Below, piece by piece: positions 10,017 to 30,069 of a stretch of DNA of 36,778 bases (the first letter of the stretch is position 1; every line of letters begins with the position of its first letter). The stretch is from a virus (taxonomy: Duplodnaviria > Heunggongvirae > Uroviricota > Caudoviricetes), in IMG/VR virus record IMGVR_UViG_3300033156_001223, positions 105,842 to 142,619 of that record; one strand, written 5' to 3'. The position numbers were made by a program, and so were the translations under genes. The notes under the pieces are model-generated. The model did no database searches, had not been told where the DNA came from, and saw only the letters and a program-made list of their open reading frames with translations.

Positions 10017-10108
10017 CACCTAGTGGCGGAATTGGTAGACGCAATGGATTGGAAATCCATTGCGGGAATATCCCGCATGCGGGTTTGATTCCCACACCTA
10101 GGTGCCCA
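10017..10108 (+). tRNA. tRNA-Ser(GGA), class II, atypical or possibly degenerate
   Basis: Acceptor CACCTAG/CTAGGTG, D arm TGGCGGAATTGGTAGACGC, anticodon stem ATGGA/TCCAT with GGA at 10051-10053, long variable arm, T loop TTTGATT, encoded CCA 10106-10108. Confidence 0.75.
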
Positions 10109-23025: not shown

Positions 23026-24016
23026 CAGTATCCTCCTTGTTAAATTTACTTACCTCCACAAAAGCTCTCTCCCATTCATCAGCTACTTGATCAGAGGTAT
23101 GAGTAGCAAAGACCCAATCCCGCAACTTCATACCCAACTTTCTTCTTGAATCATCTTTAATTAACTTTTCCAAAGCATTATACCAATCCTCGGTAGTATT
23201 CTTAACTTTAATCATTACTTCAGAAGGCACTTTCGAGTATTCCCCAACATCAGAAGCTACTACTGGGAAGCCACATAGACCATACTCCAGAATTTTGATA
23301 TTGCTTTTTGCACGATTGAATTTGTTGTCTACTAAGGGTGCAATAGCTATATCAAGTGGTAAAGTAAGTAAAGTATCAATGTATTTTTCAATAGGAACTG
23401 GTCGAATATAGACTGACTTAAATCCTGACAGAGCCCAGTCAGGAATATAACCAAAGAAAAATATTTGAAAATTATATTTTTTGTTTAGTTTAGTAAGAGC
23501 TTTTCTTACTATTGCCAAATCAGGGCCGTGAGTCATACTACCAGCCCACCCAATAGTAAGCATAGGAGAACGATTAATGGAAGGTTGCATAGTTTTCCAT
23601 TCTTCAGGAATGGTATTTTTAATAACTTTTACCTTTCCATAAGATGAATAAAGGGAGGATAGTTCCTTGGTAGTTACTGTGATAAGTTTGGAATTTTCCA
23701 TGAAAAGCTTGATTCGAGGCATGTGTTTCTTGAGATAGTTACTGGGATTTCCTTCGGGAATATTTACATAGTTATCATCAATATCGTAAATCCAGGGTAT
23801 CCCCCATTTATGTAAAATGTTAAGTACTCTTGGACTATCTACTCTCTGACAATAGACGACATCTGGTTGGAAATCGATGTGAGCGAACATATCCTCAAAA
23901 ATCACATTAGTGGTGCGAAAATCATGCCCACGTTTGTTCATAAGATGAGCAGGTACTAAATGCCTGTAGAAATAACAACCACCAGTTGGTCCAATCAACC
24001 CCAAAATCTTCATCAC
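23009..24016 (-). CDS. Glycosyltransferase, GT-B fold (GT4-like)
   Basis: GCYFYR, YDIDD, IGWAGS..H, DIAIAPL..N.FN..KSNIKILEY..G.PVVAS. Confidence 0.88.
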   Translation of the reverse strand: MMKILGLIGPTGGCYFYRHLVPAHLMNKRGHDFRTTNVIFEDMFAHIDFQPDVVYCQRVDSPRVLNILHKWGIPWIYDIDDNYVNIPEGNPSNYLKKHMPRIKLFMENSKLITVTTKELSSLYSSYGKVKVIKNTIPEEWKTMQPSINRSPMLTIGWAGSMTHGPDLAIVRKALTKLNKKYNFQIFFFGYIPDWALSGFKSVYIRPVPIEKYIDTLLTLPLDIAIAPLVDNKFNRAKSNIKILEYGLCGFPVVASDVGEYSKVPSEVMIKVKNTTEDWYNALEKLIKDDSRRKLGMKLRDWVFATHTSDQVADEWERAFVEVSKFNKEDTGEETD

Positions 24017-24019
24017 GCC

Positions 24020-24048
24020 ACTTTACCAAATTTTGTTTAATAAATCAA
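24020..24048 (-). promoter_or_regulatory. sigma70 promoter of GT4-HD-rmlD-rmlA operon (likely leaderless)
   Basis: TTGATT(24043-24048)-17-TAAAGT(24020-24025); expected start site falls at about the ATG at 24013; no SD. Confidence 0.65.
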
Positions 24049-24051
24049 GCT

Positions 24052-24079
24052 AAAAAAGGAGGGCACCCAGCCCTCCTTT
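24052..24079 (-). terminator. Intrinsic terminator
   Basis: 9-bp stem AAGGAGGGC/GCCCTCCTT, 5-nt loop, followed by a T run on the minus strand. Confidence 0.8.
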
Positions 24080-24144
24080 ACCTTATCTCGAGGGAGAACA
24101 CTCAGCCCTCCCCCAGTTAGTATAAGTATACCCCCATCTCCGGT

Positions 24145-24654
24145 CTATTGTCCAATTAATATTTGGCTATCACCCAAACATTTGACATAGCCAACTTGGC
24201 TAAGTCGATAACTTCGATAATTATTTAAACACCTACGTAAATTACTAGTATAAGCAGAAATTAAGCACTTTTTGGTATTGGCGTTGCAAATATAAACTTT
24301 ATCTGAAGTCCATTTAGTCCTTGAAGACACCATGGCTACTGCCTCGAGAATAAGTAGGATAGCTGCCTGAGCATCAGTTACCTCATCACCAGAACTAAAT
24401 TCTACATTATGGATACTCACAACGTAATCACAGATGCCATTAGAATCATAATCGGCTACAAGGCAAGTAGCATTAACTGCTCCAGCTCGTGCACTACGTA
24501 AATAGCTTTCAACCGACCTTTCTGCGTATCTGATATTACCATAACTATTCCCACACAAATCACGATTCTTTGGGTCTGTGTAATCAGTCGGTCGTTCACA
24601 CGCGACAAAGAAAAGCAGAATGAAGAGTAAGAGTAGAATACTTTGTCTCATCAT
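24145..24654 (-). CDS. Predicted lipoprotein
   Basis: Basic N-terminus, hydrophobic core, lipobox FVA-C; Cys-rich mature part. Confidence 0.7.
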   Translation of the reverse strand: MMRQSILLLLFILLFFVACERPTDYTDPKNRDLCGNSYGNIRYAERSVESYLRSARAGAVNATCLVADYDSNGICDYVVSIHNVEFSSGDEVTDAQAAILLILEAVAMVSSRTKWTSDKVYICNANTKKCLISAYTSNLRRCLNNYRSYRLSQVGYVKCLGDSQILIGQ

Positions 24655-24663
24655 GACCTCCTT

Positions 24664-24963
24664 TCAAGAATTGTCTTGCCCCTCAGTTTCTATCCAATCG
24701 ACCTCCACATCCCTCACACTAACTTCACATATGTCATCTATTTCCTCCCAATCTATATCTGTTGCTAAATCTACTGGGTCTTGCTCTAGACACTCACAGA
24801 CATAATCATATAAGGCCTCGTTATCTGTTACTATCGAACTAGGTACTGCTAAAGTAAGAGTCAGCCCCCCACGCAGAGTGGCATTAGCTACAAACTTTAC
24901 ATAAACTTCACATTGCAATATTTTATCATCTGTTTTCCGTCCATTGTGCTCTTCTACTTTCAT
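24664..24963 (-). CDS. Acidic hypothetical protein, paralog family A
   Basis: VP..IV.D.EALYDYV shared with 25938..26183 and 26421..26678. Confidence 0.6.
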   Translation of the reverse strand: MKVEEHNGRKTDDKILQCEVYVKFVANATLRGGLTLTLAVPSSIVTDNEALYDYVCECLEQDPVDLATDIDWEEIDDICEVSVRDVEVDWIETEGQDNS

Positions 24964-25005
24964 TCAACAAATCTCCAGTGCATCCAATATTGTCTCCTCT
25001 CTTTT

Positions 25006-25299
25006 TCATTCGATCATAATCACTTCTATCCCTTGAGTATCAAAGCTATATTGTTTCATTTCATCAGCCCTAAAAATCTGAACAGTACCCCTACATCCTG
25101 AAAACTCTTGTAGACTCTGTTCAAGCTCATCTATATTATTATCTTCTTGTAGCCATACATACCCTGAAATTATTGTATGACCTTTCAAAGCAGTGATCCA
25201 TAGATGTGAATTGTCAGCAGAAAACTTATCCAAAACCAGTTTAGCTAGTTTAGGTATACTTTCGTTATCCCCCATCAAATCTATATAGACTAATAACAT
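25006..25299 (-). CDS. Hypothetical protein
   Basis: SD GGGGGAG; alternating beta/alpha pattern resembling 27442 and 27769 ORFs. Confidence 0.55.
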   Translation of the reverse strand: MLLVYIDLMGDNESIPKLAKLVLDKFSADNSHLWITALKGHTIISGYVWLQEDNNIDELEQSLQEFSGCRGTVQIFRADEMKQYSFDTQGIEVIMIE

Positions 25300-25309
25300 T
25301 TTACTCCCC

Positions 25310-25951
25310 CTACTCTACATTATGAGTAGACAAAATCTCGATCACATAAGGATCAGTCCAATCAATATCTACCAAACTATCTATCAACTCCTTTTCATCA
25401 TACTCATAAGTAGGATCGAGCCATAGTCTCCCATCAGATTGATAAAATTCCCAAGCAAATAGATGGCTCTGTACTATCGCCTTGTGGAGTAGCAGTTCTG
25501 GCATCCATTTATATGCTCGGCATACCAATCCATCTACATTCTGCTTCGGGCAGTAATCATATCCATAGACTATATGTCCAATTTCGAAGAGTAGCCCTCT
25601 ATAAACCCCTTCCCAGGTATTATCCAAACATAATGAAATTATTAGTCCATTAGTAGAAGATCTTTCACAATCTGTCAGAAACCTAATCTCTACTCCTCTC
25701 CACTCTAAAAATTCTCCCAAATAATTTCTAGTTATTACTTCATTTTTCAAAGCTTCCCCTTCTCGTAAAGAAAGTCCCTTGCTCCATCTTTTGGCAAAAA
25801 CTAATAATCCTTTACTATATCCACACTCAAAAGCATTTGCTGTTGGGCAATCAAAATCTCGCGGTATTACAAAACTGCCAATAATAAATATGAGGCTTAA
25901 CGCCGTAATTATACTTATTACTACTATAATCTTATAATCAGATGTCTTCAT
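25310..25951 (-). CDS. Membrane-anchored protein with degenerate HExxH-like motif
   Basis: N-terminal TM helix; LLFEIGH. Confidence 0.6.
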   Translation of the reverse strand: MKTSDYKIIVVISIITALSLIFIIGSFVIPRDFDCPTANAFECGYSKGLLVFAKRWSKGLSLREGEALKNEVITRNYLGEFLEWRGVEIRFLTDCERSSTNGLIISLCLDNTWEGVYRGLLFEIGHIVYGYDYCPKQNVDGLVCRAYKWMPELLLHKAIVQSHLFAWEFYQSDGRLWLDPTYEYDEKELIDSLVDIDWTDPYVIEILSTHNVE

Positions 25952-26183
25952 CTTCTCCTCCCACTGGAGTTCCTAAAGCATCTTGATCTTCATCCCCAAT
26001 TTTCTCAATGTCAATTTCCTCCAAATCCCACTCAATCACCTCAGATAGCTGTATATCACACTCACTATCTAGTGCGTTATCAATCGCATAATCGCGTATG
26101 TAGTCATATAAAGCATCTCTATCTTGAACTACTGAACGTGGTACAGGGATATCGGTGGTTGTTTCTCCACACAAACTAGCCAA
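25938..26183 (-). CDS. Acidic hypothetical protein, paralog family A (start uncertain)
   Basis: VP..VV.DRDALYDYI; frame is open upstream through SEGRCQVRLFFAG. Confidence 0.55.
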   Translation of the reverse strand: MASLCGETTTDIPVPRSVVQDRDALYDYIRDYAIDNALDSECDIQLSEVIEWDLEEIDIEKIGDEDQDALGTPVGGEDEDI

Positions 26184-26246
26184 ACCTGCGAAAAATAGAC
26201 GAACTTGGCATCTACCCTCACTAAATACCCCCCATTTAAAATGATA

Positions 26247-26320
26247 CAGGGGATTAGAAGATCTAATCCCCTGGAGTCAATAATCCTCGCCTTGATCTAA
26301 GCAAAGCGAGGGAGTCAATA
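26247..26320. repeat. Two tandem hairpin + GAGTCAATA units
   Basis: 12-bp perfect stem 26247-26273 then GAGTCAATA 26274-26282; imperfect stem 26285-26311 then GAGTCAATA 26312-26320. Confidence 0.75.
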
Positions 26321-26420
26321 CCTAATAATATTAATAGGCGAAATATACTTTGTAAACACCTTCACTCATCATCCCCTCTCCTTATTTATTTTTATGATTT
26401 TTACCTTTATAATCTCTTCC

Positions 26421-26678
26421 CTATTCAAGAATTTTAAACTCATCCAACTCAACCTCTTCAATACTATCAATTTCGTAAGTAACATCATACAACATATTCT
26501 CCAATTGTCTTTTTACATACTCCATCACAGCCTCATCATCCTCATCAATCGATATAGGAATAGAAACCATAAAAGTCTGTACAGCATATATCTTGGCTAC
26601 ACCACTAAAGTAACCACGAACAACACGAACAACTTCTTCTTCCTGTTCTTCTCTTCTACTTTCATAAATACACCCCAA
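26421..26678 (-). CDS. Acidic hypothetical protein, paralog family A
   Basis: YF.G.A..IP..D.DEAVMEYV; start probably ATG near 26666. Confidence 0.55.
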   Translation of the reverse strand: MGCIYESRREEQEEEVVRVVRGYFSGVAKIYAVQTFMVSIPISIDEDDEAVMEYVKRQLENMLYDVTYEIDSIEEVELDEFKILE

Positions 26679-26733
26679 TCTCGAATTCTTTTAAATCCAA
26701 AAAAATAATTTGGCCAGATCAGTAGAACAAGTT

Positions 26734-26762
26734 AAAAAAGGTGCGAAGGGCGCCCCGCACCT
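26734..26762 (-). terminator. Intrinsic terminator closing the GC-rich RNA
   Basis: AGGTGCG/CGCACCT stem followed by TTTTTT. Confidence 0.8.
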
Positions 26763-26925
26763 GGGGAGAGCCGCCCAGAGTTACGCTCCTCCACCCCGTG
26801 CTGGGAGCGACCCAGCTCGAAGGGGCTTCGGAGTCTATCCCTGAGTACCGAGGGGATCTCACACAATCTTCCCCTATTTCGTGTAAGATCCGGCCGACCC
26901 TCGGCGGTTAACTTACCACGGCTCC
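26763..26925 (-). ncRNA. Unidentified GC-rich structured RNA (stand-alone ncRNA or riboswitch-like leader)
   Basis: GC-rich island in AT-rich DNA; closing stem GGAGCCG/CGGCTCT; nested stems CCGAGGG/CCCTCGG and GATCTTACAC/GTGTGAGATC; hairpins CGAAG/CTTCG and CTGGG/CCCAG; upstream TGtTATAAA; downstream terminator. Confidence 0.7.
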
Positions 26926-26957
26926 ATATATTTATAACATAATTCTAATAAAGAATT

Positions 26958-27437
26958 TCAGAAAGTATAACCAACTTTCGTAGCACTACGGCATATCATC
27001 TCAAGTAGCTTACGCTGTGGGTTTGGTAAGCCACAAAGGCAGGAAGGCAGGTAATGTTTGTGAGATCGGTTAGTTTTGATAGCAAAATATTTCTGGAAAT
27101 TAGTATCCTCCATCCTTACTCCCACTACTCGACAAAATTCCTCAAACTTCTCCGGGTAGCTACTAATATCTTCAATACGAAACCAAGCCTCACAAGTCTT
27201 AAGAGCTTTGCTTACTAAAAATTCCACCCAATCATAGCCATAGGAGGGTAAGTTTGGATGTAACTGGGAAGTAGTTGCATATAAAGGAGTGCCATAAAGA
27301 GAATTAATTGTTCGATAGGGATGCCGAACAACCAACACCCCAATAGGATTGCTACCAGGTTCCAATATTCGGCATGGTATTTGGGTAAGCACTTTGGTTA
27401 GCCAACTTGCTCCCCCTTTTGGTAAACACCAAAGCAT
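26958..27437 (-). CDS. Sulfotransferase-like P-loop protein (compact)
   Basis: PKGGASWL resembles the 5'-PSB loop; VVRHP..INS resembles 3'-PB; RIEDI. Confidence 0.5.
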   Translation of the reverse strand: MLWCLPKGGASWLTKVLTQIPCRILEPGSNPIGVLVVRHPYRTINSLYGTPLYATTSQLHPNLPSYGYDWVEFLVSKALKTCEAWFRIEDISSYPEKFEEFCRVVGVRMEDTNFQKYFAIKTNRSHKHYLPSCLCGLPNPQRKLLEMICRSATKVGYTF

Positions 27438-27441
27438 TTAG

Positions 27442-27747
27442 TTACTCCTCTTTATGTTTTGACCAATTAAACTCCTGCCTTGGTTTCGTTAAATCGTACA
27501 CTTTACAAGAAATTGAGTCGAGTACATCAGAATAACTCTCTGTTATGTGAGATAAATCCAACTCGAATTTATCTGCATTATACGGCCAGATCGTCTCGCA
27601 GACCCAATGGCTGTTATCATAGCATCTAAAAACTCGGCCGAAAATTTCTGACATCTTTGTCAATACTCGTGCTTGCTTATCTAGATCTTTAGAATCTTCT
27701 GGTGGAGAGAATATAATACTACAGCGTACAAATACTTCTTGTGCCAT
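27442..27747 (-). CDS. Hypothetical protein, paralog family B
   Basis: EVFVRCSIIF..P.DSKDL..CKVYDL, shared with 27769..28077. Confidence 0.6.
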   Translation of the reverse strand: MAQEVFVRCSIIFSPPEDSKDLDKQARVLTKMSEIFGRVFRCYDNSHWVCETIWPYNADKFELDLSHITESYSDVLDSISCKVYDLTKPRQEFNWSKHKEE

Positions 27748-27768
27748 AATAACCCTCCTTTTCTATTT

Positions 27769-28077
27769 CTAATCAGCTGACCAGTCATACACCCAATCTG
27801 GGACGACAAGGTCATACATACGACATTTCACAAATCTTAACACATCATTATAATTCTCAACCAAACTTTCAATCGACCTTTTTAATTGGGTTCTATCTCT
27901 TTTCACAAGCGCCTTTAGTTCCCAGCAATACTCAATTTCATGAATTGCAGAATCATTAAACAACTCTTCCAATGCCTTCAAGAACTCTACTTGTGACTCC
28001 AAATCATTAGAATCTTTTGGCAATTGGAATTCTATTATACAATGAACAAAAATTTCCTCACTCTTTCCTTTACTCAT
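27769..28077 (-). CDS. Hypothetical protein, paralog family B
   Basis: EIFVHCIIEF..P.DSNDL..CRMYDL. Confidence 0.6.
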   Translation of the reverse strand: MSKGKSEEIFVHCIIEFQLPKDSNDLESQVEFLKALEELFNDSAIHEIEYCWELKALVKRDRTQLKRSIESLVENYNDVLRFVKCRMYDLVVPDWVYDWSAD

Positions 28078-28399
28078 TATTTACTCCTTTGCTCTGACAT
28101 TTCCGCAACTCTTCCAAAGCTCTTTCTATTTCCTCTCTACCTATTAACAGGAACTCCTTTAAATCACCATTGGCATAATACATGGCTAGCATCTTTCCTT
28201 CTTTCATCGTAAGAATATTTAACACTTCCAATAAACCAATTTCACAGTGGCCACTCATTTCCCATAAACTTCTTAAGCAAGGATCAGTAACAACCTCCTC
28301 CTTACATGGTAGGTGGTACTCAATGAGATTTTCGATTGCTTCCTTATCCTTTGCTAGTAGCTCATTCATAGTCATACAAATCAATTCCGATATAGCCAT
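28070..28399 (-). CDS. Hypothetical protein
   Basis: SD GAGGGGGG; operon context. Confidence 0.55.
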   Translation of the reverse strand: MAISELICMTMNELLAKDKEAIENLIEYHLPCKEEVVTDPCLRSLWEMSGHCEIGLLEVLNILTMKEGKMLAMYYANGDLKEFLLIGREEIERALEELRKCQSKGVNNE

Positions 28400-28429
28400 T
28401 GTTCACACCCCCCTCTTTTTAATTACCTA

Positions 28430-29167
28430 CTACATCAATTCCGGATAATATCTAAGTAACAAATCGTTACAAATAGACTGAAACATTTGCTGTTGCTCGG
28501 AGGATAGTTCGGGTAGTTGATATTTAGCCTGGTTAACCTTCCTATGGGCTATGGTAGACCAGAGATGTTTACTTAAATCGATTCCAAGAATATCCTTAAC
28601 AGCTTGATTAGCAATACAATAATCAGAAACTAAGTCCTCTAAGCGATATGTTTCTAAAGCGAGGTTACTAAGCATATCATTTACCATCTTCCACCACCAA
28701 CATAATTTCTCGTATCTTGATAAACTTCTCCAACCTGGTATCTGTAATCCATATAGCTCTGGGGTGGGATGATGTATCAAAGACTCCCCTCTGAATACTT
28801 GTCTAGGTAAACATGATCTAATAACTTTTAGCCCATGTCGAATAAGATGATATACTTTGAATGGAGGATTGTATCCAAATAGAAAATATTGGCCAAAACT
28901 TGACACTTCTATAACAATATCACTAGACGACCATTTCCGCAACAGAGTAAGTTTTTCTTCCCAATAGTCAGTATTTTGAATTTCGTCTAAAATCCTTTTC
29001 TCCAAATAGGAAAAATCTAACTTTGGAAATGACACTGGTCCATAAGCACTTAATTCATGATATACCTCAACATTCGATGGGCAGCACAATTGCAGAAGAG
29101 TGGCTAGCCATTTAGTACCACTCCTACCACAACCAGTTACTAAAATATAATCCTTCATAGAGTTCAC
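28430..29167 (-). CDS. Sulfotransferase-family protein
   Basis: ILVTGCGRSGTKWL (5'-PSB), HE, HLIRHG..IRS (3'-PB), RLEDL. Confidence 0.8.
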   Translation of the reverse strand: MNSMKDYILVTGCGRSGTKWLATLLQLCCPSNVEVYHELSAYGPVSFPKLDFSYLEKRILDEIQNTDYWEEKLTLLRKWSSSDIVIEVSSFGQYFLFGYNPPFKVYHLIRHGLKVIRSCLPRQVFRGESLIHHPTPELYGLQIPGWRSLSRYEKLCWWWKMVNDMLSNLALETYRLEDLVSDYCIANQAVKDILGIDLSKHLWSTIAHRKVNQAKYQLPELSSEQQQMFQSICNDLLLRYYPELM

Positions 29168-30069
29168 ACGTCAATTCTTCGTAATATTCGATCCCATTCT
29201 TGAGAAGTAACAGAATGTCGATGATAATCATAGCAATATCTAAATAATTTAGGCCACAGTTGTTCTACCTTGGGTAGAACTCTCGAAATTACCGAAATCC
29301 ATTCTCCATTTTTTACAACTAATTCTGGAAATTTCCTAGCAAGTTTAGCATATTCCCCAGCTTTAATCTCAGAGAATATAGGTACTACTCCAGAAACGAC
29401 ATACTCCAAGAACTTAAGAACCGTTTTTGCATAATTAAACGGATGATCCTGTAATGGTATCAAACCTACTTTAAATTGCCTGAGGGCTGTTAGATATTGC
29501 GAATACGGTCTACTATTGTGCACGCCAAGCAATCGGGACTTTCCAAGAACTTGCACAGAATAAGCCTTCTGCAGCCTCCCCCAACAGCGCCACAAACCGG
29601 AATCTCTGATGTCATGATCATGAGCATAAAATCCCACGCTCAAAACTACACCATTTTTATTTCCTTTGTTGCTGGATAATACGTCCGGTCGAAACACTCC
29701 ATCTGGTAAAGATACTGTCAGTGCATCTACATCTACTCCCATTGCCAATGATAGCCAAGTAGCGAGATAAGGAGTAGAGGCAACCACTCTAATAGACTGA
29801 TATAACCAGTAGGTCATATCCTGAAGTTGTTGGAGAGAGCAAGGATGATATCCCTGAGGAAGTTTCCAGAGTAGGTCATCTATGAAATATATTATAGGTT
29901 TGGGAAATTTGGTTATGGGGTGCCAACGATTCAACAACAACAAATCAGCACTTCGAGGTGACCTACTCCTTCTACAGCCAGATAAGAACAACTTATACCA
30001 TATCGTCGAGTAGGCTGAATCTCCTTTAACATAGTCTACAATAAAAATCTTTTTCATTTCTTTGGCCAT
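29164..30069 (-). CDS. Glycosyltransferase, GT-B fold (GT4-like)
   Basis: YFIDDLLW, GLIPLQDHPFNYAKTVLKFLEY..SGVVPIFS. Confidence 0.8.
   Translation of the reverse strand: MAKEMKKIFIVDYVKGDSAYSTIWYKLFLSGCRRSRSPRSADLLLLNRWHPITKFPKPIIYFIDDLLWKLPQGYHPCSLQQLQDMTYWLYQSIRVVASTPYLATWLSLAMGVDVDALTVSLPDGVFRPDVLSSNKGNKNGVVLSVGFYAHDHDIRDSGLWRCWGRLQKAYSVQVLGKSRLLGVHNSRPYSQYLTALRQFKVGLIPLQDHPFNYAKTVLKFLEYVVSGVVPIFSEIKAGEYAKLARKFPELVVKNGEWISVISRVLPKVEQLWPKLFRYCYDYHRHSVTSQEWDRILRRIDV

Follow-up and report, generated by a model that had tools for sequence, protein, structure and literature searches.

A candidate promoter-proximal terminated small RNA with a strain-specific structured insert at a mosaic junction of a large uncultured phage

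The highest GC island in the genome of a large uncultured phage is best explained, with a probability of about one half, as a promoter-proximal terminated small RNA which lies at a mosaic junction and carries a strain-specific structured insert. The DNA analysed, called the window in what follows, is a stretch of 36,778 nucleotides at the right end of an IMG/VR contig of this phage, and the whole element is read from the sequence on the minus strand of the window, from 26925 to about 26734. An extended -10 promoter would start minus-strand transcription at about G26925, the polymerase would make a GC-rich RNA of about 190 nt predicted to fold as a 7-bp closing stem with three arms, and transcription would end at a strong intrinsic terminator about 66 nt ahead of the next gene; in most sister strains, the conserved parts would yield just an RNA of 55-60 nt. 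This reading is built on the anatomy of the locus, the pattern of its conservation, the presence or absence of the core among strains, and the absence of both a match to any known family and a switching fold; what we infer is transcription itself, where it starts and ends, and any role that the core may have.

The contig, which is 78% complete, carries genes for terminase, helicase and ligase and two glycan-tailoring blocks. The phage is isolated: its nearest terminase relative is 61% identical and stands on a 9-kb contig, and the next nearest ones are 38% identical and belong to genomes of 170-198 kb. Upstream of the RNA locus lies the last gene of a glycan-tailoring block (26958..27437, minus strand), which encodes 159 aa in the window and 173 aa in sister strains, and whose stop codon is 33 nt ahead of the RNA start. 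The first downstream gene (26421..26678, minus strand) encodes a small acidic protein which starts with MKVEEH in intact copies; it begins about 66 nt past the terminator with no promoter match in between, and the copy in the window is frameshifted by a 19-nt gap. Small acidic orphan proteins are encoded further downstream, and an RNA-binding function is recognisable in none of the neighbouring genes. Three of the small, very acidic proteins encoded on the minus strand (26421-26678, 25938-26183 and 24664-24963) are paralogues sharing a D-x-E/D-A-L/V-Y/M-D/E-Y-V/I motif, the first of them beginning with MKVEEH or MRVERH in intact copies. In addition, a perfect 12-bp hairpin of the type CCAGGGGAUUAG ... 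CUAAUCCCCUGG, probably a terminator, is found at about 26245-26275 (minus strand) within the 238-nt gap that follows an 85-aa gene, and this gap folds slightly better than its shuffles (z -1.66).

The unit itself begins with the extended -10 promoter TGtTATAAA (26939-26931, minus strand, like all features below), a sequence reading whose activity is predicted, 33 nt past the stop codon of the upstream gene and 5 nt ahead of GGAGCCG; transcription is likely to start at G26925, 6 nt downstream of the -10 element. The first 12 transcribed bases, (G)GAGCCGUGGUAA (26914..26925), include the 5' strand of the closing stem P1, a 7-bp helix in which GGAGCCG (26925-26919) pairs with CGGCUCU (26773-26767). 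The same minimum-energy fold contains a small 3-bp hairpin P2 (GGU-AAGUUA-ACC, 26906..26917), a long hairpin P3 (26847..26905) made up of an 8-bp base, the 7-nt bulge UCGGCCG, a 12-bp upper stem and the 12-nt loop AAUAGGGGAAGA, and a long bulged arm P4 (26774..26845) with the apical hairpin GCUGGG-UCGCU-CCCAGC. From P1 to P1 this structured core of closing stem and three arms measures 159 nt, within a predicted RNA of about 190 nt. Directly 3' of the CGGCUCU strand stands a CCCC linker (26766-26763), and a terminator scan places next an intrinsic terminator with a 10-bp stem, a 4-nt loop and U6 (26734..26762), the hairpin being AGGUGCGGGG-CGCC-CUUCGCACCU (26762-26739) followed by the U-tract. 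The GC-rich part formed by P3 and P4, about 134 nt (26905-26772), is the block which the alignment of strains (A1) finds either present or absent. An earlier reading of the sequence alone, hereafter the sequence-only reading, had noticed the extended -10 element and the pairing of 5' GGAGCCG with 3' CGGCTCT; both are there, but on the minus strand. Elsewhere in the genome, TGnTATAA[AT] motifs stand immediately upstream of genes and are followed by a ribosome-binding site and a start codon, and the present promoter-terminator unit is unusual because the other promoters of its type lead straight into such a start.

The predicted fold is strong and well defined. For the 197-nt RNA from 26926 to 26730 the minimum-energy fold has -94.3 kcal/mol (z -3.75), a stability equalled by none of 200 dinucleotide shuffles, and the pair probability is >0.7 for every predicted pair except one, so that the stems and hairpins noted from the letters are borne out. 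Folded alone, P3 has z -3.24, with one of 200 shuffles equally stable, and P4 has z -2.2. High GC inside an AT-rich genome is a classical mark of a structured RNA. The locus, already pointed out as the strongest GC island of the window, is also the highest of the entire 142.6-kb contig, with 68% GC over 120 nt against a mean of 38% (6.5 SD above the mean), and it is the sole non-coding member among the top four islands of the contig. The same reading had seen no ORF, and indeed the frames over the core are just 44-56 aa long and none of them matches Pfam, by which a coding region was rejected. A leader peptide initiated at the AUG or GUG after GGAGCC was rejected as well, the ORFs of 3, 5 and 45 codons being unconserved and the spacing from the ribosome-binding site only 2 nt.

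As to known RNA families, the Rfam 15 covariance models, which include those for riboswitches, ribozymes, tRNA, tmRNA, SRP, RNase P, 6S, Y RNA and pRNA, gave no family at the gathering score and, at E<=10, nothing except a 17-bit noise match of mir-1249 on the terminator, and ARAGORN found neither tRNA nor tmRNA at the locus; an identity as tRNA or tmRNA was rejected by both. A Y RNA or a retron was rejected because the 78%-complete contig holds no Ro60 and no reverse transcriptase and no Y RNA model matches. The failure of the sequence-only reading to place the RNA in a known family is thus confirmed by the Rfam search, and since no described family matches, the structured RNA would represent a new sequence family. 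Elsewhere in the window, on the plus strand at 10019-10103, Rfam reports a tRNA at a weak 31.5 bits, which has a long variable arm and was missed by ARAGORN; its acceptor helix can be extended to about 12 bp, and its surroundings of 251 nt fold with z -4.58.

Ten sister contigs covering the locus were found via the 90% cluster of the upstream gene, the cluster of the downstream gene and one DNA word scan, and the related contigs, which show the locus in four forms, come from a few independent metagenome assemblies. In all ten, promoter and terminator are kept together with the 12 bases at the start of the transcript, so the claim that the element has its own promoter and terminator gains from the conservation of both motifs in the intergenic region of every sister strain. 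TGnTATAAA is invariant in all seven sister loci of the alignment, in a neighbourhood where about half of the spacer has diverged; GAGCCRTGRTAA, the first transcribed bases, is common to all sister loci, the core-less ones too; and the 3' half of the terminator, GCACC-T(5-6), is retained in all loci. Because the invariant alignment columns fall in the stop-codon region, TGnTATAAA, GAGCCRTGRTAA and GCACC-T(5-6), selection on the locus appears to act on the promoter, on the initial 12 bases of the transcript and on the terminator. The idea of a sigma-dependent pause element in GUGGUAAGUU was rejected, as the other strains do not retain it.

The four forms of the locus differ in what stands between these parts. 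An identical full core is found in three assemblies, namely the window, L007 and L012. In L004 the first 109 nt are 90% identical to the window, with 11 substitutions and an identical P2, and then a 74-nt gap, flanked by two CCCTTCG repeats, fuses the 5' half of P4 to the 3' half of the terminator, leaving this contig with neither the 3' half of P4 nor the P1 3' strand CGGCUCU. In L009 and L017 the core is missing, and the downstream gene, which is the same, is preceded by a leader of some 60 nt; the leader folds into a 5-bp hairpin of GGGAG with CUCUC plus the homologous terminator, which carries a U-G to C-G change, and the CUCUC of L009 occupies the position of the P1 3' strand and can pair with the 5' GGGAG of L009 itself. 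The remaining five, L005, L006, L008, L010 and L011, have a different leader, about 55 nt long, which contains one small hairpin and two U-tracts and leads to a Band_7 gene. In alignment A1 the core block is therefore lacking in L009 and L017 and replaced in the other five, the flanks still being alignable, which suggests that the 134-nt GC-rich block is present or absent as a unit and that the core looks dispensable. As these sister strains keep the promoter and the terminator without it, the core is better seen as an optional add-on than as a riboswitch. The gap in L004 is known from one contig and could have been made by whatever made the indels between the window and L007 described below; for this reason, the case for dispensability rests on the forms without a core, as these have diverged and come from several independent assemblies.

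Further observations concern the strains and their assemblies. Over about 5.8 kb (23400-29200, minus strand), the window differs from L007 by no substitutions and by seven indels of 14-52 nt, mostly without microhomology; one of these, the 19-nt gap at about 26657, frameshifts the MKVEEH gene, and another, a gap of 42 nt at about 27226, is in frame and shortens the upstream protein from 173 to 159 aa. Such indels could reflect a deletion-prone population, or an artefact of amplification or assembly. From the single JGI sample 3300021467, three variants of the locus were assembled (L004, L015 and L017): one has the gapped core, one lacks the core, and one is a contig whose gene order upstream of the locus is that of the window. 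Contigs often break within the upstream gene, as expected for co-occurring strains.

The locus is also a boundary in gene content. The upstream gene is 96-98% identical among L004, L009 and L011, yet the genes downstream of it differ, and for this reason the locus is a mosaic, or recombination, junction which joins a conserved glycan-tailoring block to a variable set of small accessory genes. For this adjacent gene, L004 and L009 are 98% identical, whereas L004 and the window are only 85% identical. After the promoter-terminator unit of five sister strains, the small acidic proteins are replaced by a Band_7 (SPFH) gene, of 268 aa at L005 4225-5031, L008 1987-2793 and L010 1089-1895, a replacement which, read from the sequences, shows that cassettes are exchanged at this junction.

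Evidence for selection on the fold comes from the two distinct core sequences available overall, the window type and that of L004. Between them four pairs vary, all in the upper stem of P3: one A-U changed on both sides to G-C and is a compensatory pair, two one-sided changes (U-G to U-A and G-C to G-U) preserve pairing, and the pair at the loop end (G-U to C-C) is broken. The search for homologues and covariation proposed with the sequence-only reading thus yields one compensatory and two wobble changes in P3, whereas P1, P2, the P3 base and P4 offer no informative variable pairs. Shuffles match the observed covariation values in 245 of 500 trials, a control which cannot discriminate with two sequences only, and since there are just two distinct sequences the covariation support is minimal; the pattern of variation is suggestive of selection on the P3 fold. 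Moreover, the core region is 90% identical over the 109 nt shared with L004, as compared with 85% for the adjacent gene and a far more diverged pre-promoter spacer, and its 5' 41 nt are nearly identical. Both this near-identity and the higher conservation of the core could result from recent recombination as an alternative to selection.

Searches for further copies returned identical ones at most. No match was obtained by blastn of the locus against 50,697 phage records, nor by IMG/VR scans with an exact 23-mer, an exact 18-mer and a degenerate pattern of the chassis (the promoter, leader and terminator motifs), and a 19-mer scan of JGI metagenomes met solely the identical copy L012. A 20-mer occurs six times in 185,579 species genomes, each time in high-GC bacteria; R1, a covariance model of the core built on essentially one sequence, extends none of these six matches, which are judged to be chance. 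R1 found only the query itself in the phage's own genome and in 47 related IMG/VR phage records (10 complete), which were picked through terminase relatives, and only the known copies across the sister loci; blastn-short and nhmmer with the core against the same genome and the sister loci gave nothing above chance. The neighbouring proteins, used as anchors in IMG/VR, led to no relatives, and billion-scale protein searches confined the neighbouring genes to one narrow lineage. In two complete distant relatives the GC content is 61% and 49%, so a comparison of GC islands with them is uninformative. As R1 rests on essentially one sequence and the searches covered the indexed part of existing assemblies, distant homologues of the core may exist. 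The chassis itself occurs once in the genome, which holds one loose look-alike at most. This look-alike is a second ORF-free promoter-to-terminator unit outside the window, at G000:C1 ~56991-56905 on the minus strand (L126 ~3492-3406); it consists, in this order, of TGATATAAA, GAGCC, a 7-bp hairpin, a U-tract, a second hairpin with a T-run, the promoter TGATATAAT and the next gene. At its start it is similar to the short leader found in L005-type strains, and it has no Rfam match.

Several other explanations have to be weighed against this material. The sequence-only reading had offered a riboswitch or attenuator, in which the core is an aptamer deciding whether the terminator forms and thereby gating the downstream accessory genes, and the layout does fit, with a P1-closed multi-stem junction, a terminator and a gene about 66 nt on without any intervening promoter match. 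However, no riboswitch class matches even at E<=10, and the switch itself does not appear. Of the proposed anti-terminator, CCCAGCAC with GUGCGGGG, 7 of 8 pairs are possible on paper, but the fold forced to contain it has -73.0 kcal/mol against -93.9 for the minimum-energy fold, a cost of about 21 kcal/mol, and in stepwise folding the core and the terminator are independent at every transcript length tested, the core fold staying unchanged throughout. Likewise, the pairing CGCUCC/GGAGCG, suggested as a pseudoknot or an alternative pairing, is a perfect 6-bp complement, but as a nested alternative within the arm P4 and not as a pseudoknot. What is more, promoter, terminator and downstream gene cluster are the same in L009 and L017 although these lack the core, a different gene follows in L004, and the distribution is restricted to one lineage. 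With the core absent from such strains, no stable competing fold and no homologue outside the narrow lineage, a riboswitch is highly improbable and that suggestion is given up. It is also improbable, if a little less so, that there is no independent RNA at all and that the block is the 3' untranslated end of the glycan-operon mRNA, serving as stabiliser and terminator behind an inactive TGnTATAAA. The upstream gene stops 33 nt before the block and no terminator intervenes, so that upstream transcripts must run through the block to the same terminator; against this, TGnTATAAA is invariant across strains where about half of the remaining spacer has diverged, which points to selection on the promoter. 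The two are not mutually exclusive, and the block may be both a 3' end and an RNA of its own.

More weight, with a small but appreciable chance, is due to the view that the core was inserted as foreign or selfish GC-rich DNA, be it a captured fragment or a miniature palindromic mobile element, and sits without function for the phage in the loop of a pre-existing leader hairpin. The clean presence or absence of the 134-nt block between homologous flanks, its GC content of 64-68% within a genome of 38%, the imperfect inverted repeat formed by its ends (CCGCCGAGGG ... CUCUGGGCGG, 8 of 10 positions matching) and the nature of the locus as a recombination hot spot all agree with an insertion. Nevertheless, there is one copy in the genome and none elsewhere among the sequences searched, no target-site duplication is seen, the chance 20-mer matches in high-GC bacteria are not extended by the model, the compensatory change from A-U to G-C argues for some selection on P3, and the core occurs in two backgrounds which are 15% apart in the adjacent gene. 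A MITE- or REP-like miniature element in particular does not fit with the single copy, the inverted ends matching at only 8 of 10 positions and the missing duplication. A similarly limited chance is left to a dedicated trans-acting structured ncRNA of a new family, whose four-way-junction core would be functional by binding a phage or host protein or by acting as a decoy, for example as a tRNA-like mimic, the function having been lost or replaced in core-less strains. The strong and well-defined fold, the extreme GC content against the genome background, the own promoter and terminator, the compensatory pair in P3 and the higher conservation of the core region than of the neighbouring gene speak for it, as does a loosely tRNA-like topology, in which a closing stem of 7 bp encloses a short second hairpin and two arms and is followed by CCCCA. 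On the other hand, the core is missing from very close sister strains, it is present in a single copy with no homologue in the 47 related phage records (10 complete), and pattern scans of metagenomes, viruses and genomes yield identical copies only; nor do tRNA or Y RNA models match, does the contig hold a Ro60 or reverse transcriptase partner, or do the neighbours have a recognisable RNA-binding function. The further step, that with the 159-nt core a class of phage ncRNAs not described before has its first member, maybe a protein-binding or tRNA-like decoy against a host factor, for which the core-less strains would be natural variants by loss or replacement, is doubtful and has a low probability. 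Of the new phage ncRNA put forward by the sequence-only reading, what stands is a structured, ORF-free promoter-to-terminator candidate without an Rfam match; what does not sit well with it is a core that looks dispensable.

We thus favour a promoter-proximal terminated small RNA at a mosaic junction, into which some strains have a structured insert. The unit probably terminates transcription arriving from upstream, restarts it at an attenuated level and releases a short terminated RNA. The 134-nt two-arm core would be a strain-specific module within the loop of the first hairpin of this short RNA, kept as a folded domain where it is present and needed neither by the unit nor by the downstream gene; it may stabilise the short RNA or the 3' end of the upstream mRNA, or bind a protein. 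Because same-type promoters elsewhere in the genome lead directly into a ribosome-binding site and start codon, the arrangement suggests a deliberate short transcript or an attenuating boundary. The antiterminators PF06530 and PF03589 (phage Q families) and NusG PF02357 were not found in the 78%-complete contig and, with no known antiterminator family there, no factor for regulated read-through is identified, phage antiterminators being diverse. The locus marks the recombination junction of the conserved glycan-tailoring block with the variable accessory block; it opens no new class of regulation, and its very narrow distribution limits its general importance.

Among the known systems, a riboswitch with a terminator platform shares the P1-closed multi-helix junction followed by an intrinsic terminator and a gene, whereas the present locus has no conserved aptamer, no competing anti-terminator and no link with gene function, and sister strains having the same gene downstream lack its core. 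The GC-island RNAs are closer in composition. The principle of searching for GC islands as structured RNAs in AT-rich genomes reportedly goes back to Klein et al. in 2002, and later screens of intergenic regions by the Breaker laboratory are said to follow it. Our locus, in an AT-rich genome, is such an island too, ORF-free and framed by a promoter and a terminator, but the GC-island families were accepted on wide conservation and covariation, as compared with two distinct sequences in one lineage here. The PeSL, composite promoter/stem-loop cassettes which border shuffled orphan genes (ORFans) in T4-like phages (PMC2839356), are similar in combining a sigma-70-like promoter with a terminator stem-loop in an intergenic position beside fast-changing ORFans, where relatives are mosaic (PMC2839356, PMC4122927). 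PeSLs are about 100 bp long, occur in many copies per genome and have the stem-loop mostly within or beside the promoter (PMC2839356, PMC4122927); the present unit, in contrast, has one copy (possibly a second loose one), a terminator 55-190 nt past the start and a 134-nt structured insert.

The kind of element to which the locus belongs, a short promoter-proximal terminated phage RNA at a modular junction, is already known, and by analogy the PR'-tR' region of lambdoid phages resembles it in that a promoter is followed immediately by an intrinsic terminator ahead of a gene block, giving a short non-coding RNA. Lambda 6S RNA is about 190 nt long. The locus differs from PR'-tR' in that the 78%-complete contig yielded no Q-type antiterminator, that the phage is large and shows no sign of lysogeny, and that its RNA is far more GC-rich and structured, without sequence similarity. 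In the lambdoid phages, the constitutive promoter PR' and the immediate terminator tR' give rise to lambda 6S RNA and to StxS, the latter being processed to 74 nt, and such a short RNA, long regarded as a by-product, is able to gain functions (PMC7547250); among related phages, the stretch between this promoter and the genes also varies more than the promoter does (PMC6266700). If transcribed as predicted, the locus would be a natural example of a short promoter-to-terminator phage transcript gaining a large folded domain, in line with the view that new RNAs have their raw material in phage transcripts terminated prematurely (PMC7547250).
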